A stretch of 47,825 nt of DNA from Acidimicrobiales bacterium (GTDB lineage: Bacteria; Actinomycetota; Acidimicrobiia; Acidimicrobiales; VFJN01): NCBI GenBank assembly GCA_036280455.1, contig DASUQS010000192.1, forward strand, positions 1 through 47,825. The letters run 5' to 3'. The translations under genes were made by a program, and so were the position numbers. A model generated the notes under the pieces. That model saw only the letters and a list, made by a program, of their open reading frames with translations. It made no database searches and was not told the origin of the DNA. Shown here in pieces: positions 10,344-35,546 of the stretch. Every line of letters starts with the position of its first letter. Positions within the stretch are counted from its first letter, which is position 1.

Positions 10344-10350
10344 GTGCGGC

Positions 10351-12545: not shown

Positions 12546-12548
12546 GCG

Positions 12549-17971: not shown

Positions 17972-20149
17972 ATGACCGGAGCCATCTGGTGCACGCTGGG
18001 ACCATCCTCGCTCAACGACCACGTCATCGGTCGGCTCGAGCAAGCGGGCGTGAGCCTCCTGCGGCTGAACCTGTCGCACACGAGCCTCGAGGAGCTGCCC
18101 AGGACCTTGGACTACGTCCAGGAGCGGACGCGGCTACCGATCTGCCTCGACACCGAAGGGGCCCAGATCCGCACCGCGTCCGGGCGCGAGCCGACCGTGG
18201 ACGAGAACCGATCGGTCCGGGTCGCGCGCCGCGAGGGCGGGGACGGCGAGCTCATGCTGTATCCCGAGGGTGTGGTCGACCAGCTGGTCGTCGGCGATCT
18301 GATCAGAATCGACTCGGACGTCCTGGCCCAGGTGATCTCGGTCGATCGCGACGGCGCGGTGCTGGGGATCCACAACGGCGGAGCGATCGGTTCGAGCAAG
18401 GCGGTGACGGTCCTCGAGCGTGACATCGAGCTTCCTCCCCTCACCGACAAGGATCAGCGTGCGATCGTCATCGGGAACGAGATGGGCGTCAGGCACGTGG
18501 CGCTGTCGTTCGCGAACACGGCGTCCGACGTCGATCAGATACGGGCGGTCGCCGCCCCCGGGGCCACGGTCATCTCGAAGATCGAGTGCCTGAACGGGCT
18601 GTTCAACCTCCCGGAGATCGTGGATCGCTCCGACGCCATCCTCATCGATCGTGGCGACCTCTCGCGGCAGGTCAACATCGAGAAGCTGCCGTACATCCAG
18701 AAGGACATCATCCGGCGCTCGAAGCAGTTGGGCGTGCCGGTCTACGTCGCCACGAACCTGATGGAGTCGATGGTGACGTCGCCGCATCCCACGCGCGCCG
18801 AGGTCAACGACGTGTACAACACGCTCATCGACGGGGCGGACGGCCTGGTGCTGGCCGCCGAGACGGCGATCGGTCGGTTCCCCGTGGCGTCCGCCGGCAT
18901 GGTCCGCCAGATCGCCGAGGAGTTCGAGCGGAACTGGGACCGCAACGAGGGCAACTACTCGCCGGCGCCGATCTCGATGCTCGTCGAGCCTCACGGCGGC
19001 TGCCTCGTCAACCGAGAGGCCTTCGCGGCCAACCGGCACGAGCTCCTCAGCCTCAAGCGGCTCGTCGTGAAGCCGACCGACCTGATGGACTGCGCCCAGA
19101 TCGCCAACGGCACCTACTCGCCGCTGCGCGGCTTCATGAACAAGGCGACGCTCGACAGCGTTCTGCGCACCAACCGCCTCCCCAACGGCCTCCCGTGGAC
19201 GATGCCCCTCGTCCTGCAGGTCGACGAGGACTCGGTGCACGACATCGCCGTGGGAGACCGCATCGCGCTGAGCAGCGCCGCGGGCAAGATCCACGCCACG
19301 CTCGACGTGAGCGAGATCAGCTCGTTCGACCTGCGCGAGGTGGCGGAGGCATGGTTCGGCACCGCCTCGCTGGACCATCCGGGCGTGGCCCGGCTGGCCG
19401 CGGGTGGGACCCGGTTCGTCGCCGGGGAGATCACGCTCGTCGAGCGCCTGGCCTCGGGACACGAGCGTTACGAGCTCAGCCCCACCCGCACGCGGCTGAT
19501 CTTCAGCCAGAAGAGCTGGAGCAGGGTCGTCGGCTTCCACAGCCGCAACGTGCCGCACCGGGTCCACGAGTTCATCCAGCGGCGCGCCCTCGAGATGGTG
19601 CACGCGGACGGGCTGTACATCAGCCCGGTGATCGGTCCGAAGAAGCCCGGCGACTTCCTGTCGGGCCCGGTCCTGCGGTGCTACCAGCGGATGGTCGAGT
19701 CAGGCGTCTACCCACCGGGCGCGGTCGTGCTCGGCGCGTTCTCCACCTACCCGCGCTACTGCGGGCCGCGGGAAGCTGTCTTCACCGCCATCTGTCGCAA
19801 GAACATGGGGTGCGACCACTTCATCGTGGGCCGGGACCACACCGGGCTCAAAGACTGGTACGACGATCGTCAGACCCGCGAGTTGTTCGAGAGCCTCGGC
19901 GACCTCGGGGTCACGCCCATCTTCTTCGAGCCGCACGGGTTCAACCTCGAGACGAACGAGTACGACGTGATGGGCGGGCCACAGACGGTCGCCATCAGCG
20001 GCACGGAGGTGAGGGCGGCGCTGGTGAACGGCGCCCCTCTGCCGGACTGGTGCATGCGGGATGCCGTGCAGGAGGAGCTCCGAGAGCTGATGGCCGCCGA
20101 GGGCACGGTGTTCTGGGCACCGCAGGAACGACCGGCGGCGGTCCGCTGA
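17972..20149 (+). CDS. Fusion protein: pyruvate kinase-like A/B-domain module (no C-domain) plus PUA-like/ATP sulfurylase (sulfate adenylyltransferase) module
   Basis: 725 aa from ATG 17972 (MTGAIWCTLGPSS, matching a PK N-terminus). PK motifs: LLRLNLSH, VISKIE, LIDRGDLS, VATNLMESM, PTRAEVNDVYNTLIDGADGLVLAAETAIGRFP. ATP sulfurylase motifs: LVEPHGGCLVNR, NGTYSPLRGFM, GFHSRNVPHRVHE, YCGPREAVFTAICRKNMGCDHFIVGRDHTG. Confidence 0.88.
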   Translation: MTGAIWCTLGPSSLNDHVIGRLEQAGVSLLRLNLSHTSLEELPRTLDYVQERTRLPICLDTEGAQIRTASGREPTVDENRSVRVARREGGDGELMLYPEGVVDQLVVGDLIRIDSDVLAQVISVDRDGAVLGIHNGGAIGSSKAVTVLERDIELPPLTDKDQRAIVIGNEMGVRHVALSFANTASDVDQIRAVAAPGATVISKIECLNGLFNLPEIVDRSDAILIDRGDLSRQVNIEKLPYIQKDIIRRSKQLGVPVYVATNLMESMVTSPHPTRAEVNDVYNTLIDGADGLVLAAETAIGRFPVASAGMVRQIAEEFERNWDRNEGNYSPAPISMLVEPHGGCLVNREAFAANRHELLSLKRLVVKPTDLMDCAQIANGTYSPLRGFMNKATLDSVLRTNRLPNGLPWTMPLVLQVDEDSVHDIAVGDRIALSSAAGKIHATLDVSEISSFDLREVAEAWFGTASLDHPGVARLAAGGTRFVAGEITLVERLASGHERYELSPTRTRLIFSQKSWSRVVGFHSRNVPHRVHEFIQRRALEMVHADGLYISPVIGPKKPGDFLSGPVLRCYQRMVESGVYPPGAVVLGAFSTYPRYCGPREAVFTAICRKNMGCDHFIVGRDHTGLKDWYDDRQTRELFESLGDLGVTPIFFEPHGFNLETNEYDVMGGPQTVAISGTEVRAALVNGAPLPDWCMRDAVQEELRELMAAEGTVFWAPQERPAAVR

Positions 20150-20215
20150 GGCCGGCACGAGACGGACGGGCGCGTGAGACGGAGGGGCGGGGTGAGAGCC
20201 GACGACACCGGAACC

Positions 20216-21085
20216 ATGGAGCAGAGGCTCCCCACCTTCCTGCTCATCGGAGCGATGAAGGCCGGGACGACGAGCCTGTACCACTACCTGGCGGCACATC
20301 CGCAGGTGGCGACGCCGCGCTACAAGGCGCCCGAGTTCTTCGTGGCCGAGGCCAACTGGCACCGCGGGGTCGACTGGTACCGCAAGCAGTTCCCGCGGAC
20401 CGGGCCCGGGATCCTGGCCGTCGGTGAGGCCTCGAACGCCTACACGAAGCACCCCCGCTACGGAGGTGTGCCCAAGCGCATCGCGTCGGTGCTGCCCGAC
20501 GTGCGCCTGATCTACGTCGTGCGAGACCCCGTCGCCCGCATGCGGTCGCACTACCAGACGAGGGTGGCCGAAGGCAGCGAGACCACCCCGTTCGCCGAGG
20601 CGGTCTTCGCCAACCACATCTACCTGGACTACAGCCGCTACTCGCTGCAGATCGAGCAGTACCTCGACCACTTCCCGCGGGAGCAGCTGCTCGTGATCAC
20701 GGCCGAGGATCTCCGCGGGTCTCGCGACGCCACGATGCACTCCGTCTACGAGTTCGTCGGGGTCGATCCGGCCGCGGTGCCGAACAACCTCGACCGCGAG
20801 TTCTACAAGACCAAGGACCGGGCGGCCCGCTCCCCGCTGCCGCTGTGGGTGCGCAAGGGGCTGAAGCGGAGGTTCCCGGCGACACGGCGGTTCAAGGAGC
20901 TCGAGCCCGACCTGATCGGAGCGTTCCGGCGCCTCGCGCGGCGAGGGGGCCAGGGACCGCTGCCGGCCGAGCGGTTCGCGGTACCGGACGATGTACGACT
21001 GCGGTTGACAGCTGAGCTGGAGGACGACGTCCGCCGGCTGCGGGGCTACGTCGGCCCCGATTTCGACGGATGGGGCATCGCCTGA
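20216..21085 (+). CDS. PAPS-dependent sulfotransferase family protein (cytoplasmic)
   Basis: 289 aa from ATG 20216 (MEQRLPTFLLIGAMKAGTTSLYHYL, the 5'-phosphosulfate-binding loop), plus the 3'-phosphate-binding motif YVVRDPVARMRSHY. There is no signal peptide or TM segment. Confidence 0.85.
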   Translation: MEQRLPTFLLIGAMKAGTTSLYHYLAAHPQVATPRYKAPEFFVAEANWHRGVDWYRKQFPRTGPGILAVGEASNAYTKHPRYGGVPKRIASVLPDVRLIYVVRDPVARMRSHYQTRVAEGSETTPFAEAVFANHIYLDYSRYSLQIEQYLDHFPREQLLVITAEDLRGSRDATMHSVYEFVGVDPAAVPNNLDREFYKTKDRAARSPLPLWVRKGLKRRFPATRRFKELEPDLIGAFRRLARRGGQGPLPAERFAVPDDVRLRLTAELEDDVRRLRGYVGPDFDGWGIA

Positions 21086-21112
21086 CGGCACCATCCACAC
21101 GAGGGAAACGAG

Positions 21113-22078
21113 GTGGGCAGCATGCGAGCACTGGTGACCGGTGGGGCAGGTTTCATCGGGAGCAGGCTGGCGGCGTGTCTGGCCGAGCAGGGTCACACCG
21201 TCGTCATCGCCGATGCCGTCACGCCGTACTACGACCCTGCCCAGAAGCGGGCGAACCTGGCTCCGCTGCTCGACCGACCCCGGGTCCGGGTCCTCGAGGT
21301 CGACCTCGCCTCGGCGGACCTCGATCCGCTGCTGGCGGGCGTCGACGTCGTGTTCCACCAGGCCGCGCAGCCCGGAGTCCGCCGCTCGTGGGACGACTTC
21401 GACAGCTACGCGCGGGCGAACATCACCGTCACGCAGCGCCTGCTCGATGCGGTGCTGCGCGGTGGCGGCGTCCAGCGAGTCGTGTACGCCTCGAGCTCGT
21501 CGATCTACGGGAACGGAGCCCAGGGAGGGAGCGCCGAGACCGACCGCCCCCAGCCCTTCAGCCCCTACGGCGTCACCAAGCTCGCCGCCGAGCACCTCTG
21601 CCGGGCCTACGCCGACAACTTCGGCCTGCCGACCGTCTCGCTGCGGTACTTCACCGTGTACGGACCCGGCCAGCGACCGGACATGGCCTTCCACCGGTTG
21701 ATCGAGGCGGCGCTCGGCGGCACCCGGTTCCCCCTCTACGGCGACGGTCGACAGGTGCGCGACTTCACGTACGTCGGCGATGTGGTTGCCGCCAACCTGG
21801 CCGCGGTCGCCGCGGAGCCGCCGCCGGGCACGGTTGCCAACGTGGCCGGCGGATGCGTCGCGACGATGCGCGAGGTCATCGAGCTCGTCGCTGACCTCAC
21901 CGGCCACCCGGTCCGCATCGACGCGCGGCCGGCCCAGGCGGGCGACGTCCGCGCCACCGGCGCCCAGACGCACGTCGCATCCCAGGTGCTGGGCTGGAAG
22001 CCGAAGACCGACCTCCGAACCGGCGTGGCGCAGCAGGTGGCGTGGCACGCCGAGCGGGCCGCGGTCAGCTACGCATGA
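21113..22078 (+). CDS. NAD-dependent nucleotide-sugar epimerase/dehydratase (SDR family, UDP-hexose or UDP-hexuronate 4-epimerase-like)
   Basis: Rossmann motif ALVTGGAGFIGSRL, ASSSSIYG and catalytic YGVTKLAAE (YxxxK). The start is GTG 21113 or ATG 21122. Confidence 0.88.
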   Translation: MGSMRALVTGGAGFIGSRLAACLAEQGHTVVIADAVTPYYDPAQKRANLAPLLDRPRVRVLEVDLASADLDPLLAGVDVVFHQAAQPGVRRSWDDFDSYARANITVTQRLLDAVLRGGGVQRVVYASSSSIYGNGAQGGSAETDRPQPFSPYGVTKLAAEHLCRAYADNFGLPTVSLRYFTVYGPGQRPDMAFHRLIEAALGGTRFPLYGDGRQVRDFTYVGDVVAANLAAVAAEPPPGTVANVAGGCVATMREVIELVADLTGHPVRIDARPAQAGDVRATGAQTHVASQVLGWKPKTDLRTGVAQQVAWHAERAAVSYA

Positions 22079-22141
22079 CGTGCCGGGCGTGACGCGCTGG
22101 CGCGCGCGGTGCCGTGCCCGTGCCCCGTGCGCAGCGTGCGC

Positions 22142-23530
22142 TCAGTGCCGGGCGACCTGGTCGTCCACCGGGTCCGGACCTGCGGTGGGGGCCAGCTGAG
22201 CCGGGGCGCGGGCCGGCTGAAGCGTCGCCTTCCGGGTCTCCACCGGTCCCTCGGAGGCCAGCAGCGGCCAACCCCGCCGCAGGACGACGTCGAGCCATGT
22301 GCCGCAGACCTGTGAGGTCAGGACGGCGGTCACCACCAGGGTCGTGAAGAAGGGTGCGCTGATGATCTCGGCGTCGAACGCCACGCTGGCCAGCACGATG
22401 CCCGGCCCGCCCCGCGCGTTGCAGGTCACCGCCAGGTTGACGATGTCGAGGCGACGGAATCCGGCCAACCAGGCCGCCAGTCCGATCGAGAGCAGCACGA
22501 CGGCCGAGGAGCCCACGAGGAACGCGAGCAGCATGAGCGGCGCGAAGCCCTTGGTGAAGTCCAGCTGGTAGCCCACCAGCGCGAAGTAGATCGGGATGAA
22601 GACGGCCCCGGACACGTGGTTGATGGCGTCGATCGGGGCCCGGAACAGGTCGTGATCGGTCCCCCGGACGCCGCCGACCAGCCCGAACCCGGCGAGGAAG
22701 GCGGCGAACGCCAGGGTCACGTCGAGCGCCGCGGCCACGCTGACGTAGCCGAAGATGACCACGACGATCCACGCGACCGGGGCCTCGGCGGCGAGGACGT
22801 TCCAGCGGGCCCGGCTCGCCCGGCTCAGCAGTCGAGGCAGAACCGTCATGGCCAGCAGGACGTACACGACGTTGGCCACCACGTGGGCCGACACGGTCCC
22901 GGCGAGGGCCCCGCCTCCGGCGGCCACCGTGGCCGAGGCAAGCGCAGTCGCGAGCGCGAGGACGCCCCACAGCACGATGTCCTCCAGGACCGCTGCCCCG
23001 AGTATCAAGCTGGCGAAGCGGGTGTGCAGGATCCCCAGGTCGTAGAAGATCTTCGTGATCACCGGGATCGAGGTGACCGAGGCTGCGATGGCGAGCACGA
23101 GCGCGACGGCGGGCCGGCTGCCTGCGTCGCCCACCAACCGGTCCAGGGGCAGCACGAGCGTGGCGAGCAGCGTCACGAAGAACGACAGCGGCGTACCGAG
23201 GCCCAGGATCCAGGCGGTCGGCTTGCGGTTCTCCTTGCCCAGCACGTTCCGCACGCTGGACCCGGACACGAACATGAGCAGCAGCAGCCCGAGGTGGTAC
23301 AGGAAGCCCAGCACGACGGTGGGGGGATCGCTCCTGCCGTTCCCGAAGATGTGCGAGGCCGTGTCCGGTGCCAGCCACCCGAGGAGCGACGGGCCGAGCA
23401 GGATGCCGGCCAGGATCTCGCCGACGACCTTGGGCTGCCGCAGCCGCACGGCCGCCTGGCCGAGCACCGTGGCGCCGGCCACGAGCAGCAGCAACGCCAG
23501 TGTGAGCGATCCGAGGTTGTCGGTGGACAT
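22142..23530 (-). CDS. Cation:proton antiporter (CPA2 / Na+-H+ exchanger family)
   Basis: 462 aa with ~12 TM segments. The N-terminus AAVRLRQPKVVGEILAGILLGPSLLG is typical of Kef/NapA-type CPA2 exchangers. Confidence 0.88.
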   Translation of the reverse strand: MSTDNLGSLTLALLLLVAGATVLGQAAVRLRQPKVVGEILAGILLGPSLLGWLAPDTASHIFGNGRSDPPTVVLGFLYHLGLLLLMFVSGSSVRNVLGKENRKPTAWILGLGTPLSFFVTLLATLVLPLDRLVGDAGSRPAVALVLAIAASVTSIPVITKIFYDLGILHTRFASLILGAAVLEDIVLWGVLALATALASATVAAGGGALAGTVSAHVVANVVYVLLAMTVLPRLLSRASRARWNVLAAEAPVAWIVVVIFGYVSVAAALDVTLAFAAFLAGFGLVGGVRGTDHDLFRAPIDAINHVSGAVFIPIYFALVGYQLDFTKGFAPLMLLAFLVGSSAVVLLSIGLAAWLAGFRRLDIVNLAVTCNARGGPGIVLASVAFDAEIISAPFFTTLVVTAVLTSQVCGTWLDVVLRRGWPLLASEGPVETRKATLQPARAPAQLAPTAGPDPVDDQVARH

Positions 23531-23613
23531 GTCTCACCTCGTCGGGCTGGTAGCTGATCCGCTCCGGTAGGTACGGCAGCGATCGACGGCGACGCCGGCG
23601 GCGTGATCGAGGC

Positions 23614-25119
23614 TCACAGGCACCGCCACACCGCGCGTTTCACCGCCTCGAGCACCTCCTCGTAGGGCCGGCCGGCGTCGATCTCGACGGTGCCGTACCG
23701 GGCGTCCGGGAAGGCGAGCTGGGAGACCAGCGCCCGGCGGCGCGCCAGGTCGTCGGGATCGTGGTCGGGCCGGCGGCGCTCGGCCGTTCCCTGGTCGACG
23801 CGCAGGCGGACGACCAGATCCGGCGGGAACCGCTCGGCCAGCTCGTAGGGGCGTGCCTCCCACCGGGCGAGGCGAGTGTGCACGCGGCCGCCCGACCACG
23901 CGTGCAGCAGCGGGCCGTCGTTGATCCCGGGGCGCTGGGCCTGGGGGTACCGGTCGCAGATCACGAGCAGGCCCCGGTTGCGTCCGTCGAACGCACGCTG
24001 CAGCCGTTGCCGCTTCTCGCGGGCGAGGGCGAAGGCCCAGAGCGCCTTGGCCCATCCGGGGCGGACGTCGCGAGCGCGGCCGTCGGCGGCCGGCCGCCGG
24101 GGAGCCTCGCCGCGAACCACGTCCCGCAGCACCTTCATGGGCCACCGCAGGGCGGACGATGGCCCGTCCCCGCTGCCGAAGTACACGACCATGGTGTCGA
24201 ACTTGGTCGAGAACCACCGGCGCAGGTCGGCCACCACGGACGACTTGCCCGCGCCGTCGGGGCCGATCACGACCACGAGCAGCCCGCCTCCGGGGAGTCC
24301 GCGGCCGTACAGCTTGGGCCGGTCGAGGTACCGGCGGCTGACCCCCCGCTGGAACCACGCCCATTCGCGGCGCCACCGGCGCAGCGCGGCGCCCGGGCCC
24401 CGGTGGGCGGTCTGCAGCGCCAGCGAAGCCCGGACGAGGCGACGCAGCCGCACGAGGCGACGGGCGTCGATGCCGCCGGCCAGCATGTCGGCCACCGCCC
24501 GGGCGCACGGTCCGCCCAGCCAGATCTCGATCCGGGCGACGATCTCGGCGTCGGTGGTGCCGGCCCGCAGGGCGTCGAGCTCTGCCCGGAACCAGCGCGA
24601 GGGATCGCGCCCCAGCCGGGTGCCGACCAGATCGCGCGTGCGGATCTTGAGCGCCGCCCTGATCAGCAGCAGCGCCGCTTCCATGGCCGGGTCGGGGACC
24701 AGGACGCCGGCGTCGCTGCGCCTCGCCGAGGCCAGCACCGCTCGCTCCCACGGCAACCGGTAGCGCTTGAGGTGCCGCTCGCCGGTGACCAGCCGGTAGT
24801 GGGTGTGGAAGTGCACCAGCGCGCCGGTGGCGCGGTCGTGCCCCAGGAAGTCCTCGAGGCCCATCTCGGTCCGCGTCGGCGCCACGCGTCCGCGCCGGAG
24901 GCCGCACGCAGCGAACGTGCGGTGGACGTCGTCGAGCCGCTCCCCGTCCACCAGCAGGTCGACGTCGGTGTCGCCCGCGAGCGCGGCGTCGAGGTGGTCG
25001 TTGCTCTTCCAGTGGCAGTGGGCGATGCCCGCGGCCTCGAGCGCGGCCAGCACGTGACGGGCCAGCGTCGACGGCGTCGGCTCGGTCACACCGCCGCCCG
25101 GGCTGAGATCAGCGTTCAC
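23614..25119 (-). CDS. Two-domain protein: N-terminal uncharacterised nucleotidyltransferase-like domain plus C-terminal P-loop (thymidylate-kinase-like) kinase domain
   Basis: 501 aa from GTG (complement of 25117-25119, a GTGA overlap with the Wzx stop). N-terminal half: AGIAHCHWKSNDHLDAALAGDTDVDLLVD...HFHTHYRLV, a DxD-containing NTase-like pattern. C-terminal half: Walker A VVVIGPDGAGKSSVVADL and LLVICDRYP (a DRY-like motif as in dTMP kinases). The track ORF 23614..26670 is an in-frame read-through into the Wzx antisense frame. Confidence 0.7.
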   Translation of the reverse strand: MNADLSPGGGVTEPTPSTLARHVLAALEAAGIAHCHWKSNDHLDAALAGDTDVDLLVDGERLDDVHRTFAACGLRRGRVAPTRTEMGLEDFLGHDRATGALVHFHTHYRLVTGERHLKRYRLPWERAVLASARRSDAGVLVPDPAMEAALLLIRAALKIRTRDLVGTRLGRDPSRWFRAELDALRAGTTDAEIVARIEIWLGGPCARAVADMLAGGIDARRLVRLRRLVRASLALQTAHRGPGAALRRWRREWAWFQRGVSRRYLDRPKLYGRGLPGGGLLVVVIGPDGAGKSSVVADLRRWFSTKFDTMVVYFGSGDGPSSALRWPMKVLRDVVRGEAPRRPAADGRARDVRPGWAKALWAFALAREKRQRLQRAFDGRNRGLLVICDRYPQAQRPGINDGPLLHAWSGGRVHTRLARWEARPYELAERFPPDLVVRLRVDQGTAERRRPDHDPDDLARRRALVSQLAFPDARYGTVEIDAGRPYEEVLEAVKRAVWRCL

Positions 25120-26618
25120 GATTGCACCTCCATCGCCGCGGGCAGGTCGTCCGGTGGCGCCTTCGAACGAAGGCGGGCGTAGAGCCAGGCGACGTCCGGG
25201 CCCAGCACGCTGCTGTGCCGGGCCCGCACGACGGCGAGCAGCCCGAGCGCGGTCGCCACGGCGATCCCGAGGGTGACGACCGCGGACACGCCGGCGCGGT
25301 CGGTGAGCACTGCGACCGGGACGATCGTCGCGGCGAGCGCGGCCGCCAGCGCGGCGCCGCGCGCGTGGGCGGCGACGAAGGCCGACCAGCTGAGGCCGGT
25401 CGCCTCGAGCACCAGCTGGGCCATCAGGCAGAAGTTGGCGATGACCGCGAAGGCCACCCCGGCGGCCACGCCGGAGGGCCCCCACCGTTGGCCGACGAGT
25501 GCGCCGGCGACCACGAGCACCGCGTACACGAACTGGCGGGCCGCCCGCTCGTAGACGAGTCCCAACGCCCGCGACAGGGTGTCGCTCAGCTTGTAGCTGG
25601 TGCGGGCGAGCAGGCTCATCGACAGGAGGCGCAGCGGGGTCACGACGCCGTCCCAGCCGTCGCCCAACGCCACGCTCACGATCTCGGGCGCCAGCACGAA
25701 GACGAAGGTGCTGAGCGGCAGCATCACGACGGCGACCAGCGACACCGCCCTCCGGTACTGGTTGGCGAGCCGCACGCGTTCGTGCTGCAGCTCCGCCTGC
25801 ATGGGGAACAGGACCCGGTCGATGACCTGGCCCACCAGCATGGCCGGGGCTCCCAGGAGCTGGTAGGCGCGCCCGTAGATGCCGAGCGCGGCAGGGGACA
25901 GCGTGGCGCCCACCACCGCGTAGTCGCCTTGCAGGGCGACGTAGTTGAAGAACCGCCCGAGGGTGAACCCGCCGCCGTAGTGCAGCAACTCCCGGGCGCA
26001 GTCGCGGTCGAGGGTCGGTCGCAACGACACCGGTCGCGACACGAACAGCAGCGCGGTGTACAGCGCGAGCTGGCCGAGGTGGGCACCCACCAGAGCCCAC
26101 ACCCCCGCACCAGCGAAGCCCAGGGCCACTCCGAACCCGGCGTAGCCCAGCACGAACGAGCACGCGTTGGCGTTGGCGAGACGGCGGAAGCGAAGCTCGC
26201 GTTGGAGCAGGGATTCCGACACGACACCGACGGCCTGCACGATGAAGCTGATCTGCAGCACGCGCAGGACCGGCACGAACTCCTCCGCGTCGAAGACGGA
26301 CGCCAGCGCCGGCGCCGACGCGAACGCGAGCGCGGAGGTGACCAGACCGCAGACGATGGCGATGGTGCCGCCGGTCCGCACCAGGCGGTCGGAGATCGTG
26401 GGCCGCTGCACGAGCGCCGGCCCGACGAGCGACTCGGTGAGCAGCCGGCCGAGACCGATCATGACCAGCGCGGCCTGAACGACGCCGAAGTCCGCCGGGG
26501 TCAGCTCGCGGGCGAGGACGACCAGCAGGAGGAGCTGGCCGATCGCCTGAGCGGTGTAACCGGCTCCGGTCCAGGCGAACCCGCGGGCGGCGACATGGGT
26601 GCGGTTCCGGCCCGTCAC
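25116..26618 (-). CDS. wzx: Polysaccharide flippase (Wzx; MOP/PST superfamily)
   Basis: 500 aa with ~12-14 TM helices. The N-terminal region (FAWTGAGYTAQAIGQLLLLVVLARELTPADFGVV) and the overall layout are typical of lipopolysaccharide/EPS 'polysaccharide biosynthesis protein' flippases. It sits in an operon with Wzy, a GT and a priming transferase. Confidence 0.85.
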   Translation of the reverse strand: MTGRNRTHVAARGFAWTGAGYTAQAIGQLLLLVVLARELTPADFGVVQAALVMIGLGRLLTESLVGPALVQRPTISDRLVRTGGTIAIVCGLVTSALAFASAPALASVFDAEEFVPVLRVLQISFIVQAVGVVSESLLQRELRFRRLANANACSFVLGYAGFGVALGFAGAGVWALVGAHLGQLALYTALLFVSRPVSLRPTLDRDCARELLHYGGGFTLGRFFNYVALQGDYAVVGATLSPAALGIYGRAYQLLGAPAMLVGQVIDRVLFPMQAELQHERVRLANQYRRAVSLVAVVMLPLSTFVFVLAPEIVSVALGDGWDGVVTPLRLLSMSLLARTSYKLSDTLSRALGLVYERAARQFVYAVLVVAGALVGQRWGPSGVAAGVAFAVIANFCLMAQLVLEATGLSWSAFVAAHARGAALAAALAATIVPVAVLTDRAGVSAVVTLGIAVATALGLLAVVRARHSSVLGPDVAWLYARLRSKAPPDDLPAAMEVQS

Positions 26619-27814
26619 GCCACGACTGCTCCGTCGCGCCGGGAGCGGGCGACCACCACCGCCCTCTCATACGTCACGACGAGCGCCAGGAGCACCCAGA
26701 GATGGCGATAGTGGGACGTCTCCCGGAAGAGCGAGGCGACGACCAGGCTGGCGATCATCGCTCTCCCGACGCCGCCCGGCACGGCGAAGCCCCAGACGGT
26801 TGCCCACAGCGCCACCAGCCCGAGTAGACCGAGGGCACCGCGCTCTGCCAGGAAGGCCAGGGGCTCGCTGTGGGTCTCGGTCGAGTCGGTCCCCTCACGG
26901 AGCACCTCGAGGTTCCGTGAGCTCCCGGGACCGATTCCCCACGGCGCGTCGACGACCTGGTCGACCGCAGCGTTCCACAGGTCGATGCGTCCGGTCGTCG
27001 TCCGGTCCAGGTGGTCGGCGTTGTAGCCCGTGGTCTCGCCCTGCTCGGGCAGGAGCCGGGTGCCGGAGGCGACGACCAGGACCAGCAGCGCGAGCGCGCC
27101 GGCGAAGGCGAACGTGAGCAGCTGGCGGGTCGCGGGGCGGGCCCGGCGGGCCGCTTCGATTCCCAGCACGAGCACGCCCACGACCAACTGGACGATCGCT
27201 CCGAACGACCCTGTGGCGATGACCCCGGCTCCGGCGGCGGTCAGTCCGACGATCCGGGCCGGACGCGAGACGGGCAGCACGACGAGCGCCATGAAGCAGG
27301 TGGCCATGAAGTGGCCTGCCAGGTTGGGATTGGGGAACGTGGCCTTGGCCCGCAGATGCTGGTCGTCGAGGAAGACCAGCTGGAACCCGACGATCACCGT
27401 GCCTGCGAGCAGCGCCCGGGACGGGAGCCGGAACCAGCGAGGTGGCGCAGGATCGAACACCTGCAGCACGGCGAGAAGCGCTGCGGCCGCCCCGAGGTCG
27501 CGGAACAGGTCGTAGAGGACCCAGTGCCGGAGCCCGACCGCCAGCGTCCCGACCAGGCTGCCCGCGAACACCAGCAGGATGGGCAGCAGCGCGGCCACGG
27601 TGACCGGGCGTAGCGACCGGCGGCCTGCGATCGTCTCCAGGACGGCGAGTACGACGAAGCCGCCGATGAGCGCGTCGGACGCGGTGAAGCCGCCGGCACG
27701 GGCTTGGGCGACGCCCGTGATGAAGACGGCGGCTGCAAGCACGGGGACGGACAACGGGCGCGGGACGGCGGCGAGAACCCGTCTGCCCCCGGGAGTCCCG
27801 AGCGTCGACGTCAT
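26615..27814 (-). CDS. wzy: O-antigen ligase/polymerase-like membrane protein (Wzy-type)
   Basis: 399 aa from ATG (complement of 27812-27814, an ATGA overlap with the GT4 stop), with a further ATGA overlap with the wzx start. It is polytopic, with a large periplasmic-loop region (PEQGETTGYNADHLDRTTTGRIDLWNAAVD) characteristic of Wzy_C/O-antigen ligase proteins. Confidence 0.75.
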   Translation of the reverse strand: MTSTLGTPGGRRVLAAVPRPLSVPVLAAAVFITGVAQARAGGFTASDALIGGFVVLAVLETIAGRRSLRPVTVAALLPILLVFAGSLVGTLAVGLRHWVLYDLFRDLGAAAALLAVLQVFDPAPPRWFRLPSRALLAGTVIVGFQLVFLDDQHLRAKATFPNPNLAGHFMATCFMALVVLPVSRPARIVGLTAAGAGVIATGSFGAIVQLVVGVLVLGIEAARRARPATRQLLTFAFAGALALLVLVVASGTRLLPEQGETTGYNADHLDRTTTGRIDLWNAAVDQVVDAPWGIGPGSSRNLEVLREGTDSTETHSEPLAFLAERGALGLLGLVALWATVWGFAVPGGVGRAMIASLVVASLFRETSHYRHLWVLLALVVTYERAVVVARSRRDGAVVA

Positions 27815-29022
27815 GGAGCGGGTGGCCGACGGGCGAGCACGGACGAGATCAGGGTCGCGTAGTTCCCGCGGACGTCGTCCCCCTGCCAGGGACGCAGCGC
27901 CGTGTCGGGACATGGGTGGGGGTCGGGGTCGAAAACGGCGGCGTCGATCCGGCGCGCGACCGCCCTGGCCGCGCCGATGACGTCGCCCTGGTCGGCGACG
28001 GACCCGGCGGCGCCGAGGTCGAGCAGCTCATCGACGCCGTCCACCTCCCAACACACGAAGGGCGTCCCGGCCGCTGTCGCCTGGAGAAGGACCTGCGGGA
28101 GCCCTTCGGCCCGGCTGAGGAGCACGAGCACATCGGCGTTCACAAGAAGGGACTCGGGCTCCGCGACGTGGCCGAGCACCCGCGCATCGCCGGACAGCCC
28201 CATGCGGTCGAGCAGCGCCACCAGGTCGTCCCGCCGGGGCCCGTCACCGGCCACCACCAGGTACGGCGCCACCGACTGGGCCAGCATGAGGAGGACCTGC
28301 TGGTGGAGGATCGGCAGGCTCGTCACGTTCTTGCGGTCGTCGAGCGCGCCGAGGTACAGCACCCAGGGCCGATCGCTGGGTAGCCCGTACGTGGCGGCCG
28401 CCCGTGCGTGCAGCGCCGCCCGGGCCTCCTCGCTGCGGGGAAGTCGGGCTCCCGACCGGATCACGTTGAGCTTGGCGCGCTCGACGCCGATCCGGGCGAA
28501 CCGGTCGGCCAGGTCTTGGCCGACGACCGCGTAAGCATCCGTCCAACGGCTGAGGAAGCGCTCCACCGGCCGGTAGACGTGGTTGGCGACGGGTCCGTAG
28601 CCGGGACCGAAGCTGGCCATCGACAACGAGTGGATGACCGGCGGCCCATCGGCCATGTGCGCGGAGATCCTCCCGATCACGCCCGCTTTCGACTGATGAG
28701 TGACGATCACGTCGAATCGCCGCTCCCTCATCAGCCGCCGGACCCGGGCGATCGCGCGGGCGTCCTGCACCGGGTTGGGCTCCCGGCACAGGGACGGCTC
28801 GACGATGACCTCCACGACCGGGAGGTGCCGGCTCAGCAGCAGGGGATCGGAGTCGCGCCCGACCAACACCGTGTGCCCGGACTCGGCGAACGCCTGGCAC
28901 ACGTCGCGGACACGCTGCTCCGAGCCCCCGCGCAGGTACCGCGTGCACAGCTGCAGCACATGGCCCGGGCACGCCGGCGCGGCCGTGACCTCTGCCGTCG
29001 GTTCTCCCGTCGCTCGCGTCAC
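27811..29022 (-). CDS. Glycosyltransferase family 4 (GT-B fold, retaining)
   Basis: 403 aa. The C-terminal half has the GT4 signature LSRAEGLPQVLLQATAAGTPFVCWEVDGVDELL (an EX7E-like motif), and the N-terminal Rossmann half is present. Confidence 0.85.
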   Translation of the reverse strand: MTRATGEPTAEVTAAPACPGHVLQLCTRYLRGGSEQRVRDVCQAFAESGHTVLVGRDSDPLLLSRHLPVVEVIVEPSLCREPNPVQDARAIARVRRLMRERRFDVIVTHQSKAGVIGRISAHMADGPPVIHSLSMASFGPGYGPVANHVYRPVERFLSRWTDAYAVVGQDLADRFARIGVERAKLNVIRSGARLPRSEEARAALHARAAATYGLPSDRPWVLYLGALDDRKNVTSLPILHQQVLLMLAQSVAPYLVVAGDGPRRDDLVALLDRMGLSGDARVLGHVAEPESLLVNADVLVLLSRAEGLPQVLLQATAAGTPFVCWEVDGVDELLDLGAAGSVADQGDVIGAARAVARRIDAAVFDPDPHPCPDTALRPWQGDDVRGNYATLISSVLARRPPAP

Positions 29023-29048
29023 CAGTCAGCCCGCCCTCGTCATCGCCG

Positions 29049-30095
29049 TCAGGCCCGCTCGGCCCTCTGGGCTCCGTCGTCCCTGCGACTCGGTCCCTCG
29101 CCCGAGGGTCCCTCGGGCGGCCCGGCCACACCTCCGTTCGAATCAGGGTCCATGACCAGCACCGGATACCGCTGCGTCGCCTCGGCTCGGTAGGCGGTGA
29201 AGTACGACGCGCACACCATGGCGACGAGGCCGATCGAGGCCAGGATCACCGCGAGCTGCCCGGGCGGGAAGGTGTGGGCACTGCTGACGTCGCCGGCGGG
29301 AGACTCCAGCTCGACACCTCCGGAGCTCGCGGCCGCCGAGACGTCGGCTTCCCTGGCCCGACGATCGAAGTCCGACTGGGTGGTCACCAGGCTGGCGCGA
29401 CTGCTGTGGAGCCCGGCGATCGTCTCGCTCGTGACGGTGAGCCGCGCCTGCGCTTCGGCGCCGGCCACGGTGCCCGGGTTGGCATCGACCTGGGCTTGCA
29501 GGCTTCCCGCCTCCTGCACCAACTGAGCCACCTCGCCGTCGACGGCCGCGATGTCCCCGTCGATCGCCGCCGCACTGCCCCGCAGCTCCTCGGCGAGAGC
29601 GGCCGAGCGCTCCCGGACCGCGTTGCGCTGCTGGGCGATCACCGAGGTCGCCACCCGATCGGTGATGGCGGCGGTGTCGAGGCCGTGCTTCGTGGTGACA
29701 GTGATGGTGACGACGCTCTCCGCCTCGGGGGACTCGGCCGAGATGCTCTTGATGTCGCCTGGCGCGAGGTCGAGCGCTTCGGTCGCCTCAGCCTCCACCG
29801 GCCGGGACTCGGCGCGCGACACCACGGCGCTCTGGCGCTCCTCGAGGGGCAGCGGCTCCACCGGCGCGGACACCCCCTGCTCGGAGCCCACCAGCAGCAG
29901 CCTCGTCTCGGCCTGGTTCTCGCGTGGGGACTGCGAACCGAGCGCGTAGCCCGCCGCGGCTGCCACGACCATGACGAGGAGGATCCACCAACGACGCCGA
30001 TAGACGACCCCGATGAGATCCGTGACCTCGGGGTCGGGGAGCCTGTGGTCGCTCGTCGGGCCGTACGTCGTACCGGGCTCTGTGTCAGCGCGCAT
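29049..30095 (-). CDS. Wzz-like polysaccharide co-polymerase (chain-length determinant) without a tyrosine-kinase domain
   Basis: 348 aa from ATG (complement of 30093-30095; MRADTEPG), overlapping the upstream gene by 11 nt. N-terminal DLIGVVYRRRWWILLVMVVAAAAGYAL (Wzz motif plus TM1), a long coiled-coil periplasmic region, a C-terminal TM (LAVILASIGLVAMVCASYF) and a short Gly/Pro-rich tail. Confidence 0.7.
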   Translation of the reverse strand: MRADTEPGTTYGPTSDHRLPDPEVTDLIGVVYRRRWWILLVMVVAAAAGYALGSQSPRENQAETRLLLVGSEQGVSAPVEPLPLEERQSAVVSRAESRPVEAEATEALDLAPGDIKSISAESPEAESVVTITVTTKHGLDTAAITDRVATSVIAQQRNAVRERSAALAEELRGSAAAIDGDIAAVDGEVAQLVQEAGSLQAQVDANPGTVAGAEAQARLTVTSETIAGLHSSRASLVTTQSDFDRRAREADVSAAASSGGVELESPAGDVSSAHTFPPGQLAVILASIGLVAMVCASYFTAYRAEATQRYPVLVMDPDSNGGVAGPPEGPSGEGPSRRDDGAQRAERA

Positions 30096-30849
30096 CGGGC
30101 TGCCCTCCCAGGACGTATCGGACGGTCCGCGCGAGGATCCGCAGGTCACCGCTCAGGGACCGGTGAAGGACGTAGTCGACATCGAGGCCGATCCGCTGCT
30201 CGTACGGGATCTGGCTGCGCCCGCCGACCTGCCAGGGTCCGGTCATGCCCGGGCGCACCTGCAGGACGATCTGGCCGCGATCGCCGTAACGCCACAGCTC
30301 CTCGGGGACGACCGGCCGGGGCCCGACGAGGCTCATGTCCCCGCGGATGACGTTCACGATCTGTGGCAGCTCGTCCAGACTCGTACGGCGCAGCCAACGA
30401 CCGACGCGCGTGATGCGAGGGTCGTCGTGCAACTTGAAGTCGGCGGCGAAGGCGCTTCGGGCGCCGCCGTCGTTGGCGAGCAGGTCGGCGAGCTCGGCGT
30501 CGGCCCCGACGTGCATCGTCCGGAACTTGAGGCACCGGAACAACCGGCCCTGATAGCCGACCCGGGTCTGCGCGAAGACCACCGGGCCCGCGGAGGTGCA
30601 CCGCACGACGACCGCAACGACGGCCATCGGCACGGCGAGCACGCACAGCGCGACGGCCCCGACGACGACGTCCAATGCACGCTGGGCGCCCCCCGCCCGC
30701 AGGGCTCTCGTCTGCGAACGGTCCACGAGATGGGTGCACCTGGCGGGCACCATGGGAGGCACGATCGCCGCCCGCGTGCCCGTGAGAGGCGTGATCGGCT
30801 CTGCGGTGCCGGCGCGTATGGAGCCAGCAGTGTCGCGTTGGTAGGGCAT
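30085..30849 (-). CDS. Polyprenyl-phosphate sugar-1-phosphate transferase (small 'bacterial sugar transferase', WbaP C-terminal/PglC-like priming enzyme)
   Basis: Motifs: ALDVVVGAVALCVLAVPMAVV, GPVVFAQTRVGYQGRLFRCLKFRTMHVGAD, DPRITRVGRWLRRTSLDELPQIVNVIRGDMSLVGPRP. The true start may be an internal Met (MVPARCTH). Confidence 0.88.
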   Translation of the reverse strand: MPYQRDTAGSIRAGTAEPITPLTGTRAAIVPPMVPARCTHLVDRSQTRALRAGGAQRALDVVVGAVALCVLAVPMAVVAVVVRCTSAGPVVFAQTRVGYQGRLFRCLKFRTMHVGADAELADLLANDGGARSAFAADFKLHDDPRITRVGRWLRRTSLDELPQIVNVIRGDMSLVGPRPVVPEELWRYGDRGQIVLQVRPGMTGPWQVGGRSQIPYEQRIGLDVDYVLHRSLSGDLRILARTVRYVLGGQPDAR

Positions 30850-31240: not shown

Positions 31241-32539
31241 GTGAGCGAGGTCGACCCCCGGGTCATCGGGCGGCGGGGCTTTCTCGTGAGTGCCGGCAGT
31301 GGTGCGCTGGGCGTCACCATCCTCGGGATGGCCGCCTGCACCGGCGACGACGAGCCAGACGACGCCGACGGTGAGCAGCAGGCCACAGATGCACGCGGCC
31401 CGGGCACGGATCCGCGCTACTCGCTCGGCCTGCCCACCGCCGAGCTGCTGGCCCGGGCGAACCTCGCTGCCCCGACCGGGGTCGATGACGGCAGCCGAGG
31501 CAACGGGTACTGGGTGGGGTCGCCCACCGCCTCCACGACCTGGGACATGCGGAGCTTCGCGGCGTCCGGGCACTTCGACTGCGACGCCACCAGTCCGGAC
31601 ACCTACCCGACCGGCCGCTACAACCGTCCGCGCGCGCCGACCGAGCACCAGAGGAACGCCAGGCCGATCCGGCTGGGCCACACCACGCCGGCCGCCGAGC
31701 CGGCGATCATCGGCGGCAAGGTGACCGGCGACCAGTCCACGACGTTGGGCTGGACCGATCTCAAGCACGGTTCCTACATCCAGGGCCTGATCGACGAAGG
31801 CATGGACCCGGATCGCGCCTACGACGAGATCGTCGACAACACCAACATGGACGGCGACCCCCGGTTGTACTTCGCCAGCGGGTCCTGGGCTGTCGTCGAC
31901 GGCCTCCGCTGCCGCAACACCTGGGACGGCTTCGGGGTCTACGGCGACGGCTCCAGGACGGCCACCGGGACCATCTACATTCGCAACAGCTGGTTCTCGA
32001 CGAATCGCGACGACGGCATCGAGAACGACGAGCAGCGCCAGCTGCACCTGTTCGACTGCCTCTTCGAAGATGCGCACACTCTGCTGTCCACTCGGGCCGA
32101 GGACGAGGACGGCTCCCCGGCCGAGGCGAACACCCAGAACGTCGAGGACTGCGTCGTGAAGCTGACCTCCGCTCCGGGTGGGCACAAGCGGCCTTCGGAC
32201 GTCTCCACCTCCGGCTACATCTACAAGATGCAGGACAACTCGCCATACCTGGTGATGCGGAACACGGTCGTCTCGACGGTCGGGGACTTCAGCTCCGACG
32301 AAGGCCCGATGCTGCCCGAGCGGTCAGGGGACCACTACGACAACGTGACCATCTGCTGGTTGAGCGGCGAGACCTACCCGGGCAACACCCCGGCAGGAGT
32401 CACCGTCCGCACGGGCGCCGCCGCCCAGACGCTGATCGACGACGCGGTCGCTCGGTGGAAGCGTCGGCACGGAGTCACCGACTTCGACAACGTCGACATG
32501 GCGCGGATGCTGGCGCCGGCCGCTCTTCGGTCGGACTGA
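31241..32539 (+). CDS. Tat-exported lipoprotein, probably a right-handed beta-helix glycan-active enzyme (function inferred)
   Basis: 432 aa with the twin-arginine motif VIGRRGFLVSAG followed by a lipobox-like ILGMAAC. The mature part has repeated short beta-strand/turn motifs with Asn/Asp ladders (IYIRNSWFSTNRDDGIENDE, LFDCLFED, VVKL). No specific family was recognised. Confidence 0.75.
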   Translation: MSEVDPRVIGRRGFLVSAGSGALGVTILGMAACTGDDEPDDADGEQQATDARGPGTDPRYSLGLPTAELLARANLAAPTGVDDGSRGNGYWVGSPTASTTWDMRSFAASGHFDCDATSPDTYPTGRYNRPRAPTEHQRNARPIRLGHTTPAAEPAIIGGKVTGDQSTTLGWTDLKHGSYIQGLIDEGMDPDRAYDEIVDNTNMDGDPRLYFASGSWAVVDGLRCRNTWDGFGVYGDGSRTATGTIYIRNSWFSTNRDDGIENDEQRQLHLFDCLFEDAHTLLSTRAEDEDGSPAEANTQNVEDCVVKLTSAPGGHKRPSDVSTSGYIYKMQDNSPYLVMRNTVVSTVGDFSSDEGPMLPERSGDHYDNVTICWLSGETYPGNTPAGVTVRTGAAAQTLIDDAVARWKRRHGVTDFDNVDMARMLAPAALRSD

Positions 32540-32635: not shown

Positions 32636-33283
32636 ATGGAAGCGCCCCATCGCCGCTTGCACCCGGACGCGCCGACGGTCCGGGTGCCGCCGGCGTTGCC
32701 GGGTGACCTGTCTCCCCTGGCACGGCTCACATCGGTCGTGGCCGCCCGAGCCACCCGGGGGGAGCCGTTGCGGATCTTCACCACGCTCGGTCGTCATCGC
32801 CGACTGTTCCGGCCGTGGCTCCGGTTCGCCGCGACCCTCATGTTCCGGGCCGAGCTCTCCCGGACCGATCGCGAGCTGGTCACGCTGCGCACGGCGTGGC
32901 GGTGCGGGTCCTGGTACGAGTGGGTGCAGCACGTGGTGCTGGCTCGGCGGGCCGGCCTCTCGGCCGGCGACATCGAGCGAACGCTCCAGGGGCCGGCCGC
33001 GGACGGCTGGACCCCCCGCCAGCGTGCGCTCCTGGAGGCGGTGGACGAGATGCACGATCTGCGTGTGATCACCGACCGGACATGGGATGAGGTCAGCGCC
33101 CGGCTCAACGACCGCCAGCTCGTGGAGCTGTGCCTTCTCGTGGGCCACTACGAGATGTTGGCGTCGACGCTCAACAGCCTGGGGGTCGAGCCGGAGCCGT
33201 CGGTGCTGGCACAGCTCGATGGCGTGTCCGCGGATGCCGCAGACCGCCTGCGCGAAGGTCTGGTGGCGAACCGGCGGGCGTGA
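32636..33283 (+). CDS. Carboxymuconolactone decarboxylase (AhpD-like) family protein
   Basis: 215 aa from ATG 32636 (MEAPHRR). Motifs: RELVTLRTAWRCGSWYEWVQHVVLARRAGLS and LVELCLLVGHYEMLASTLNSLGV, the CMD-domain pattern. Confidence 0.8.
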   Translation: MEAPHRRLHPDAPTVRVPPALPGDLSPLARLTSVVAARATRGEPLRIFTTLGRHRRLFRPWLRFAATLMFRAELSRTDRELVTLRTAWRCGSWYEWVQHVVLARRAGLSAGDIERTLQGPAADGWTPRQRALLEAVDEMHDLRVITDRTWDEVSARLNDRQLVELCLLVGHYEMLASTLNSLGVEPEPSVLAQLDGVSADAADRLREGLVANRRA

Positions 33284-35354: not shown

Positions 35355-35546
35355 GTGTCCAGCGTCGGGGATGCGCGCCCGCGGGGACAGAGGCCATCCG
35401 CACAGACCGCGACGACCAAGGGGTGGACCGACGTGAGGTCCTTCGGCCCTGTGACCGGGGTGGGGTGTGTCGTAGCGTTGCCTGGAGCTCGACGTGCACC
35501 GCACCGCGTGGTGGCCGTCGTGCTCGCCCCGGACGGAGGTGAGCCC

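Follow-up and report, generated by a model that had tools for sequence, protein, structure and literature searches.

Two facing operons in the window, 47,825 nt of contig DASUQS010000192.1 of an Acidimicrobiales bacterium, appear to encode a self-contained pathway of the Wzx/Wzy type. Its product would be a sulfated polysaccharide, on the surface or extracellular, of this Acidimicrobiales-type actinobacterium, probably with galacturonate among its sugars. We put the probability of this reading at roughly 60%. The plus-strand operon carries genes for a fusion of pyruvate-kinase (PK), PUA_2 and ATP-sulfurylase domains, a sulfotransferase and a nucleotide-sugar epimerase. The minus-strand operon carries genes for a priming phosphoglycosyltransferase (PGT), a Wzz-like protein, a GT4 glycosyltransferase, Wzy, Wzx and a 501-aa protein with nucleotidyltransferase (NTase) and thymidylate-kinase (TMK) folds, and a CPA2 transporter gene lies between the two operons (Table 1). 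The original prediction had joined the two operons into one sulfated-glycan pathway, and this core idea holds on synteny and co-occurrence.

Gene order was compared among related loci, in which L-numbers label the loci and P-numbers the fusion protein sequences. A check of synteny and co-occurrence had been proposed, and the same gene order was found in four Acidimicrobiales metagenome-assembled genomes (MAGs) with a fusion identity of 80-81%. In L002, a 73%-identical relative, all components are located on one strand. The genes for Wzz, Wzy, a weakly matching Wzx, a small P-loop protein, the NTase/kinase (NTK) protein, a GT4 enzyme and a PGT are followed there by the fusion gene, and then by genes for an acyltransferase, a formyltransferase, a sulfotransferase, an epimerase, a TauE permease and a large PKD protein. 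In two MAGs, one gammaproteobacterial (L071) and one of Gemmatimonadota (L022), the fusion has a sulfotransferase orthologue with 59-65% identity beside it. The fusion occurs with CPA2, Wzx and glycosyltransferase genes in L073 (Planctomycetota), L084 (Acidimicrobiia), L089 and L090, partly together with sulfotransferase, PGT or Wzy genes.

The minus-strand genes are predicted from their domains to form a Wzx/Wzy-dependent polysaccharide pathway. The Bac_transf match lies above the Pfam cut-off, so an initiating sugar-phosphate transferase is present, and Wzy_C was matched with 60.8 bits against a cut-off of 31.7. The operon had been described as joined by ATGA/GTGA overlaps. GTGA overlaps were indeed found at both ends of the Wzx gene, coupling it to the Wzy gene and to the gene of the 501-aa protein, and an ATGA overlap joins the GT4 and Wzy genes if Wzy starts at 27814; the Wzy orthologue in L001 likewise has 399 aa. 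The Wzz-like protein, for which an alternative start is the ATG at 30095, has a hydrophobic stretch near each terminus of the translation, as in polysaccharide co-polymerase (PCP) proteins, with an Ala/Glu-rich region between them and no kinase domain. Its orthologue in L001 has 370 aa, and its counterpart in L002 has a Pfam Wzz match. The GT4 enzyme was the sole glycosyltransferase found. The stated lack of a bacterial tyrosine kinase and of further glycosyltransferases agrees with Pfam scans of 20 flanking genes, in which neither appeared (a few small open reading frames (ORFs) more than 10 kb away were left out), and no tyrosine autokinase of the AAA_31/CbiA type was seen among 30 window genes scanned. 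The same cassette of PGT, Wzz-like protein, GT4, Wzy, Wzx and 501-aa protein was found in other Actinomycetota (L005 and L007).

The sulfotransferase was matched to Sulfotransfer_1 with 62 bits (cut-off 22). Its best match in the Protein Data Bank (PDB) was heparan sulfate (HS) 3-O-sulfotransferase 3A1 (3-OST-3A1; 7e-19), and an N-deacetylase/N-sulfotransferase (NDST) was also among its best solved relatives. The motifs KAGTTS (5'-phosphosulfate-binding loop, 5'-PSB) and RDPVARMRS (3'-phosphate-binding motif, 3'-PB) align with KGGT and RDPVTRAIS of 3-OST-3A1. Because both motifs align with those of HS enzymes, the protein looks like a carbohydrate enzyme of the HS 3-OST/NDST-like type, dependent on 3'-phosphoadenosine 5'-phosphosulfate (PAPS). 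The earlier assignment to PAPS-type sulfotransferases agrees with the Sulfotransfer domain and both motifs. The closest solved relatives act on carbohydrate (heparan sulfate) and not on a lipid or small molecule, and the genomic context supports a glycan as the putative acceptor. Neither a signal peptide nor a membrane segment was evident by eye in the protein, whose likely start is the ATG at 20216. The epimerase, a short-chain dehydrogenase/reductase (SDR), was most similar in the PDB to MoeE5 (3.1e-70) and to 6zl6 (1.6e-62), deposited as 'Epimerase domain-containing protein'. MoeE5 and 6zl6, the latter from Bacillus cereus, are UDP-glucuronate 4-epimerases. The SDR protein is probably UDP-glucuronate-4-epimerase-like and would supply UDP-galacturonate (UDP-GalA), and the product is likely to contain galacturonate because the epimerase is most like these two proteins.

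The plus-strand operon had been credited with sulfate activation by an ATP-sulfurylase fusion. The ATP-sulfurylase domain is present, but a complete route to PAPS is not, as the fusion partner is the catalytic domain of pyruvate kinase and not an adenosine 5'-phosphosulfate (APS) kinase, and no APS kinase is encoded in the locus. In Pfam scans the PK barrel spans residues 4-307 (E 2.6e-67, 227.7 bits), PUA_2 residues 339-492 (6e-38) and the ATP-sulfurylase domain residues 499-705 (2.6e-58). PUA_2 and ATP-sulfurylase both exceed their Pfam cut-offs, and the NCBIfam sulfurylase equivalog scored 273.8 against a cut-off of 322.95. The nearest solved sulfurylase is that of Methanothermococcus thermolithotrophicus (8a8d, E 6e-77). 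The sulfurylase motifs HxxH (HRVH) and GRDHxG (GRDHTG) are intact in the window protein and, together with RN, in most family members. Nine residues of the PK half (R31, N33, S35, D60, R67, K203, E205, D229 and T261) do not vary among 13 diverse fusions, and most of them also align with canonical PK; they correspond to the catalytic residues and the K+ and Mg2+ ligands. No PK_C domain was found in the fusion, the alignment to canonical PK stops at the end of the barrel, and the score against the pyruvate kinase equivalog TIGR01064 (258.7) falls below its cut-off of 306.4. On these residues and scores the PK half would work like a PK domain, yet the protein is not a canonical pyruvate kinase.

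The PK-PUA-sulfurylase architecture is widespread and well conserved: even between phyla, its members, of ~720 aa, are at least 50% identical. When one genome per species was scanned, at least 575 candidate fusion loci emerged, of which the best 80 were nearly all full-length. Cultured carriers among these 80 belong to Mesorhizobium, Sinorhizobium, Ensifer, Pseudaminobacter and Methyloversatilis, and MAG carriers to Verrucomicrobiota, Omnitrophota, Planctomycetota, Chloroflexota, Gemmatimonadota, Calditrichota and others. Family members are named just 'pyruvate kinase' or 'ATP sulfurylase' in the source annotations, and an Ensifer adhaerens replicon in PLSDB carries the fusion in a record with no annotation.

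To describe the neighbours, up to three nearest genes per locus were scanned with Pfam (97 genes from 33 diverse loci). The most frequent domains were Sulfotransfer_3 (15), Sulfotransfer_1 (14), Na_H_Exchanger (8), APS_kinase (8), Wzy_C (5) and Sulfatase (4), and across about ten phyla the closest neighbours of the fusion were mostly sulfotransferases, APS kinase, CPA2 transporters and Wzy. Of the 49 loci in which at least 6 kb flanked the fusion in each direction, 20 contained a CysC-like gene within ~10 kb, mostly directly downstream. Where the start of the ORF was clear, the translated CysC-like proteins had ~175-190 aa, with the motifs GLSGAGKTT, LDGD and KGLYAKA. The rhizobial gene order is fusion, APS kinase, CPA2. 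CysD and CysN gave no matches, so no other sulfurylase was detected in the fusion loci. Since a CysC-like gene is near the fusion in these 20 loci, usually immediately 3' of it, the most fitting interpretation of the fusion is that it acts as the sulfurylase in a unit dedicated to supplying PAPS for glycan sulfation.

Two further observations concern the fusion gene and its surroundings. The plus-strand sulfation genes (18001-21000) have a G+C content of 0.68-0.69, against ~72% for the window as a whole; this is consistent with the fusion/sulfotransferase pair, 55-65% identical between phyla, having spread laterally. In two alphaproteobacterial MAGs (L003 and L004, 10001-12166 and flanks) the fusion is situated inside a nonulosonic-acid cluster (NeuB, CTP_transf_3 and an aminotransferase), where a Sulfatase-family gene adjoins it and no Pfam sulfotransferase is found nearby. 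This context hints at sulfated or otherwise modified nonulosonic acids.

CPA2 proteins are cation/proton antiporters, and the CPA2 gene had been taken merely to sit between the two operons. This is not so, as a CPA2 homologue adjoins the fusion in many phyla. The distance is one or two genes in Planctomycetota (L073, 55% identity), Chloroflexota (L028, 54%), Gammaproteobacteria (L015, 51%), rhizobia (L035 and L053, 36-38%), L089 and L090. In view of this recurrent adjacency across phyla, the reading of the CPA2 gene as an unrelated interloper was rejected. The window protein consists of the transmembrane domain only, and it is a conserved partner of the fusion, with no evident reason for a link to sulfate activation.

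In the secreted PKD protein encoded upstream of the fusion, a K319L-like PKD domain is accompanied by a weak beta-propeller signal of the NHL/SdiA-regulated-like type and by a C-terminal domain with no annotation. In L001 the gene of its homologue stops 3 nt before the fusion gene. Two regions that do not overlap the PKD domain, residues 296-587 and 700-872, show 43-52% identity to proteins encoded near the fusion in Mesorhizobium and Sinorhizobium (L035 and L053), and residues 219-587 are 38-49% identical in Chloroflexota and Calditrichota loci. On this similarity the PKD protein probably belongs to the fusion module as a conserved partner. The 432-aa protein begins with a region that contains an RR motif and a lipobox-like sequence, and Beta_helix was matched at just E 0.17. 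ORFs close to the fusion in L053, L054 and L084 show weak similarity to this protein (52-68 bits); it is possibly a glycan-processing enzyme, and its membership in the module is uncertain. Searches for PDB sequence matches gave nothing informative for either protein.

In the pathway that we propose, the small PGT would prime polyprenyl phosphate and the lone GT4 enzyme would add the second sugar, one of the two sugars probably coming from the UDP-GalA of the epimerase. The sulfotransferase, which has no evident export signal, would use PAPS to sulfate the lipid-linked unit or a nucleotide-sugar precursor. Wzx would flip the unit, Wzy would polymerise it and the Wzz-like protein would set the chain length. 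A disaccharide repeat and sulfation before flipping, as predicted originally, may reasonably be inferred. The Sat-type sulfurylase domain of the fusion would activate sulfate, and the PK domain, with its active site complete, would most likely regenerate ATP from ADP and phosphoenolpyruvate (PEP) at the site of sulfate activation. The unfavourable sulfurylase and APS-kinase reactions would be pulled forward because of this regeneration, and the step from APS to PAPS would be supplied in trans. A tentative extension, which we hold to be doubtful, is that the fusion represents PEP-driven sulfate activation, taking the energetic role of the CysN GTPase in CysDN, and that it forms with the sulfotransferase and CPA2 a mobile 'sulfation cassette' marking sulfated glycans in Actinomycetota, Chloroflexota, Gemmatimonadota, Planctomycetota, Verrucomicrobiota, Omnitrophota and Proteobacteria.

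Several observations weigh against a sulfated Wzx/Wzy polysaccharide as the product or against parts of the proposed pathway. No APS kinase was detected in the 47.8-kb window by tblastn with Escherichia coli CysC or by Pfam among the scanned genes, and E. coli CysN and CysD gave no tblastn match in the whole window; the same CysC search does detect the CysC-like genes in 20 of the 49 other fusion loci. The supply of PAPS is unproven because the window has no APS kinase; the sulfotransferase nevertheless keeps the 3'-phosphate-binding motif of PAPS-dependent enzymes. The canonical sulfurylase motif FQTRN is replaced by FHSRN in the window protein and reads FH(S/T/G)RN family-wide. In a sub-clade of the fusions (P0033, P0059 and P0097, from loci L089 and L090) the sulfurylase motifs are degenerate, e.g. 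GFHAGHLPNRLHE and IIECDHGH, and every PK residue is kept. This sub-clade still adjoins genes for a sulfotransferase, CPA2, an alkaline-phosphatase-family protein, a TMK-like protein and Wzx, and because the sulfotransferase neighbour is kept, the sulfurylase domain may not always be catalytic. No description of a PK-sulfurylase fusion was found in the literature, so that the role of the PK domain is one we purely infer. In the polysaccharide cassette, the Wzz match (23.4 bits) lies below the Pfam cut-off of 25.5, and the Wzy_C family also includes ligases and O-oligosaccharyltransferases. The closest relatives of the locus are all uncultured MAGs, in which a sulfated product is predicted from genes alone.

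The ambiguity of Wzy leads to a product of another kind. The locus might build a short sulfated oligosaccharide on a protein (O-glycosylation) or on a wall or lipid acceptor, with 'Wzy' acting as a ligase or O-oligosaccharyltransferase and the PKD protein as the acceptor. Wzy_C (PF04932) is the O-antigen-ligase family, in which sequence cannot split polymerase from ligase, and Wzx gave a sub-threshold match (2e-29) to the O-glycosylation flippase model NF058658. The single glycosyltransferase at the locus and the conservation of the secreted PKD protein as a neighbour across phyla would also agree with an oligosaccharide. However, the Wzz-like protein is translationally linked in the operon and kept in related cassettes, which fits polymerisation better, and no second Wzy_C paralogue is present to divide the polymerase and ligase roles. 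We regard an oligosaccharide product as improbable.

It is slightly more improbable that the two operons are independent, with the minus-strand genes making an unsulfated polysaccharide and the plus-strand genes serving general sulfur metabolism or, as for the sulfolipids of mycobacteria, sulfating a lipid or small metabolite. The operons converge and are not transcribed together, the minus-strand cassette occurs in L005 and L007 with no sulfurylase or sulfotransferase within ~10 kb, and the missing APS kinase is consistent with separate functions. Against this, the fusion gene of L002 directly follows the PGT gene on the same strand, with the sulfotransferase in the same run of genes, and Wzy_C, PGT, Wzx and glycosyltransferase genes recur beside the fusion in unrelated phyla. 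The kinship of the sulfotransferase with carbohydrate sulfotransferases of solved structure, and the nucleotide-sugar epimerase encoded in its operon, also argue for a glycan substrate.

Equally remote is a regulatory role for the sulfurylase half, as an APS/PAPS-sensing domain on a specialised pyruvate kinase, with sulfate activated elsewhere in the genome. The stricter conservation of the PK half and the family-wide change of Q to H in the sulfate-binding motif are in keeping with such a role, as are the proteins P0033, P0059 and P0097, which have lost RN/HxxH and GRDH but keep the PK residues and the sulfotransferase, CPA2 and Wzx neighbours. The intact RN, HxxH and GRDHxG of the window protein and most of the family, the high similarity to an ATP sulfurylase of solved structure, and the small APS kinase gene that accompanies the fusion in 20 of 49 loci, usually directly after it and with no CysD or CysN found, argue instead for a working sulfurylase.

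Two local sources of PAPS were also considered. The 501-aa protein was rejected, as a main reading, in the role of a non-orthologous APS kinase. That role had been suggested by its family never sharing a fusion locus with CysC (0/14 against 20/35, Fisher p = 1.9e-4). The rejection rests on context, because each of the six contexts anchored on this family proved to be a polysaccharide cluster lacking a nearby sulfurylase or sulfotransferase, and on the kinase domain, because it is thymidylate-kinase-like with a DRY-like motif and no LDGD. The second candidate was a loop in which, in loci without an APS kinase, the PK domain acts on a 3'-phosphorylated nucleotide and 3'-phosphoadenosine 5'-phosphate (PAP) is recycled to PAPS by a nucleoside monophosphate (NMP)-kinase-like protein, then PK, then the sulfurylase. 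No residues separating the fusions of CysC-containing from those of NTK-containing loci were found, even at relaxed thresholds. This low-probability version gained no support because group-specific residues are lacking and the NMP-kinase-like partner is not specific to sulfation.

The 501-aa protein had been described as a kinase-like fusion. That it is a fusion, of an NTase fold and a thymidylate-kinase fold, was borne out; a partner specific to sulfation it is not, since it accompanies the cassette where sulfation genes are absent. The AlphaFold model had a pLDDT of 85.8. With Foldseek, the C-terminal half was matched to thymidylate kinases (E 3e-7, TM 0.6-0.68, 15-21% identity), and it contains the P-loop GPDGAGKS and the DRY-like CDRYPQ. 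The score against the thymidylate kinase equivalog TIGR00041 was 16.9 bits, against a cut-off of 83.25, so the resemblance is at the level of the fold only. The region past the P-loop helix reads YFGSGDG, unlike the motif of TMK. The N-terminal half, modelled separately, gave weak matches to ANT(2'')-Ia, poly(A) polymerase and the CCA-adding enzyme. The model fits a nucleotidyltransferase fold of the Pol-beta type, with which an invariant DxD (D52/D54) and weak PF14907 matches agree; some homologues show weak PF14907 or PF02223 matches, and nothing relevant was found in the literature on PF14907. Homologues adjoin Wzx in L005, L007, L090 and the clade of the window, and we treat the protein as a general accessory of this Wzx/Wzy cassette, not specific to sulfation.

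Two side observations belong to this gene. A protein of ~240-280 aa is regularly encoded beside the NTase/TMK-like gene elsewhere, and the window has no counterpart; three of the five such neighbours listed in Table 1 gave weak P-loop matches (AAA_33, AAA_18 or AAA_22), and those of L093 and L094 had no Pfam match. The 'tRNA-???' that ARAGORN reported at 23970-24062 on the minus strand, within the gene of the 501-aa protein, is almost certainly spurious.

Genes were called from third-position GC (GC3) and frame plots and then checked with Pfam and NCBIfam. Every gene named in the original prediction was found intact at the borders given there, from the ATG of the fusion at 17972 to the ATG of the priming transferase at 30849. 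An 83-nt gap separates the CPA2 gene from that of the 501-aa protein. Rfam, tRNA, promoter and terminator scans yielded nothing usable on operon structure.

Table 1. Features of the two operons and their surroundings, with the ~240-280-aa neighbours in compared loci. Positions are those of the window unless a locus is named.
Feature	Position	Strand	Evidence or remark
PKD-domain secreted protein, 872 aa	15148-17766	+	K319L-like_PKD 1.9e-8; outside the interval first predicted
PK/PUA_2/ATP-sulfurylase fusion, 725 aa	17972-20149	+	Pfam, NCBIfam
Sulfotransferase	20174-21085	+	Sulfotransfer_1 7.7e-17, Sulfotransfer_3 1.4e-15
SDR epimerase	21113-22078	+	Epimerase 4.7e-58
CPA2 transporter	22142-23530	-	Na_H_Exchanger 4.5e-39
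NTase-fold/thymidylate-kinase-like P-loop protein, 501 aa	23614-25119	-	No Pfam match above cut-off
Wzx flippase (MOP family)	25116-26618	-	Polysacc_synt_3 1.3e-67; MOP flippase NF007773 1.3e-50
Wzy-type polymerase (Wzy_C/O-antigen-ligase family), 399 aa from ATG 27814	26615-27814	-	Wzy_C 1.7e-16
GT4 glycosyltransferase, GT-B fold	27811-29022	-	Glyco_trans_4_4 6.4e-21, Glycos_transf_1 3.2e-19
Wzz/PCP-like protein	29049-30095	-	Wzz 7.7e-5, under Pfam cut-off
Priming polyprenyl-phosphate sugar-phosphate transferase, 254 aa	30085-30849	-	Bac_transf 4.8e-61; WbaP/EPS_sugtrans C-terminal domain 5e-76
432-aa protein, divergent from priming transferase	31241-32539	+	No Pfam match above cut-off
~240-280-aa neighbour, L002	4818-5651		
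~240-280-aa neighbour, L006	11565-12296		
~240-280-aa neighbour, L007	10432-11271		
~240-280-aa neighbour, L093	11517-12284		
~240-280-aa neighbour, L094	11470-12222		

Other genes flank the locus. A complete arginine deiminase operon, with genes for ornithine carbamoyltransferase, a carbamate kinase-like AA_kinase protein, arginine deiminase and a DcuC-family carrier, was found at 9333-14271 on the plus strand. On the minus strand, two adjoining KAS-III-like (ACP_syn_III) genes, one of them encoding a 559-aa protein with an N-terminal extension, occupy 33314-35843, and a CMD-family gene at 32756-33283 precedes this pair. A 90-nt tRNA-Met was placed by ARAGORN at 39625-39714 on the plus strand, in the gap ahead of an alcohol dehydrogenase gene.

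Sulfated polysaccharides are valued biomaterials and among bacteria have been regarded as essentially cyanobacterial (PMC8205485; PMC13390465). Synechocystis sp. PCC 6803 has a Wzx/Wzy cluster with sulfotransferases, xss (synechan), whose product was chemically shown to be sulfated (PMC8205485). In this exopolysaccharide (EPS) cluster, as in the window, genes for Wzx and Wzy accompany Pfam-type sulfotransferases; it also has a PCP protein, for which the Wzz-like protein of the window is a candidate counterpart. Unlike the window, it has eight glycosyltransferases, two sulfotransferases and the regulators XssS/R/Q, and its outer membrane polysaccharide export (OPX) protein is encoded elsewhere; it lists no sulfurylase, PK fusion, CPA2 or NTase/TMK-like gene, and its host is a diderm cyanobacterium (PMC8205485). 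The window, in contrast, has one glycosyltransferase, one sulfotransferase and a dedicated sulfate-activation gene in an actinobacterial host. The synechan cluster is under an activator, XssQ, of the STAND type (signal transduction ATPases with numerous domains), and an AAA_16-TPR-GerE gene occurs near the polysaccharide genes of L094. In the window, an 873-aa regulator with AAA_16/AAA_22 and GerE domains (LuxR-type, STAND-like) is encoded at 5144-7765 on the plus strand, ~10 kb upstream.

For the wps-1 cluster of Actinoplanes missouriensis a sulfated Wzx/Wzy polysaccharide has been predicted, and an adjacent gene of the sulfate adenylyltransferase/APS kinase family is required for the same phenotype (PMC13390465, 2026). 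This cluster resembles the window in being an actinomycete Wzx/Wzy cluster with a heparan-sulfate-type sulfotransferase, WpsH, and differs from it in having GT2 and GT26 enzymes, a GH26 protein, a methyltransferase, the protein-kinase-like WpsI and two sulfotransferases (PMC13390465). Its activation gene is of the sulfate adenylyltransferase/APS kinase type and not a PK fusion; the two loci were compared by description, and sulfation is predicted in both. The gene combination had been thought unfamiliar in high-GC Gram-positives, a claim that the wps-1 prediction weakens, while the gene set of the window itself differs. The kind of cluster is thus already known, and the set found here is different and much smaller. 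Three conserved components have no counterpart in the descriptions of xss and wps-1: the fusion of PK with sulfurylase, the transporter of the CPA2 family, and the NTase/TMK-like protein taken together with the PKD protein.

A sulfurylase joined by fusion or close linkage to another activation enzyme is likewise found in the Sat-CysC PAPS synthases (PDB 2gks) and in NodPQ/CysDNC. In the window the partner is instead a PK domain, and neither a CysN GTPase nor an APS kinase domain is present. The published rhizobial systems for sulfated polysaccharides depend on activation of the nodPQ type. The same fusion occurs in cultured Mesorhizobium, Sinorhizobium and Ensifer, together with APS kinase, CPA2, PGT and PKD-type proteins. 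Sulfation of rhizobial surface polysaccharide is represented by KpsS of Mesorhizobium loti, as cited in PMC11625862.

The locus and its relatives suggest that sulfated polysaccharides occur well beyond cyanobacteria, through a module set on the polysaccharide clusters of many soil and aquatic phyla. The module of PK-sulfurylase fusion, sulfotransferase and CPA2 may serve as a genomic marker for sulfated glycans, and the very small gene set of the window, with one priming enzyme, one glycosyltransferase and one sulfotransferase, may be of use in engineering a sulfated polymer. Experiments would be most worthwhile on the fusion family, for which rhizobia and Methyloversatilis are cultivable carriers. 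As an uncharacterised protein, the fusion could reveal a novel means of meeting the energy demand of activating sulfate.

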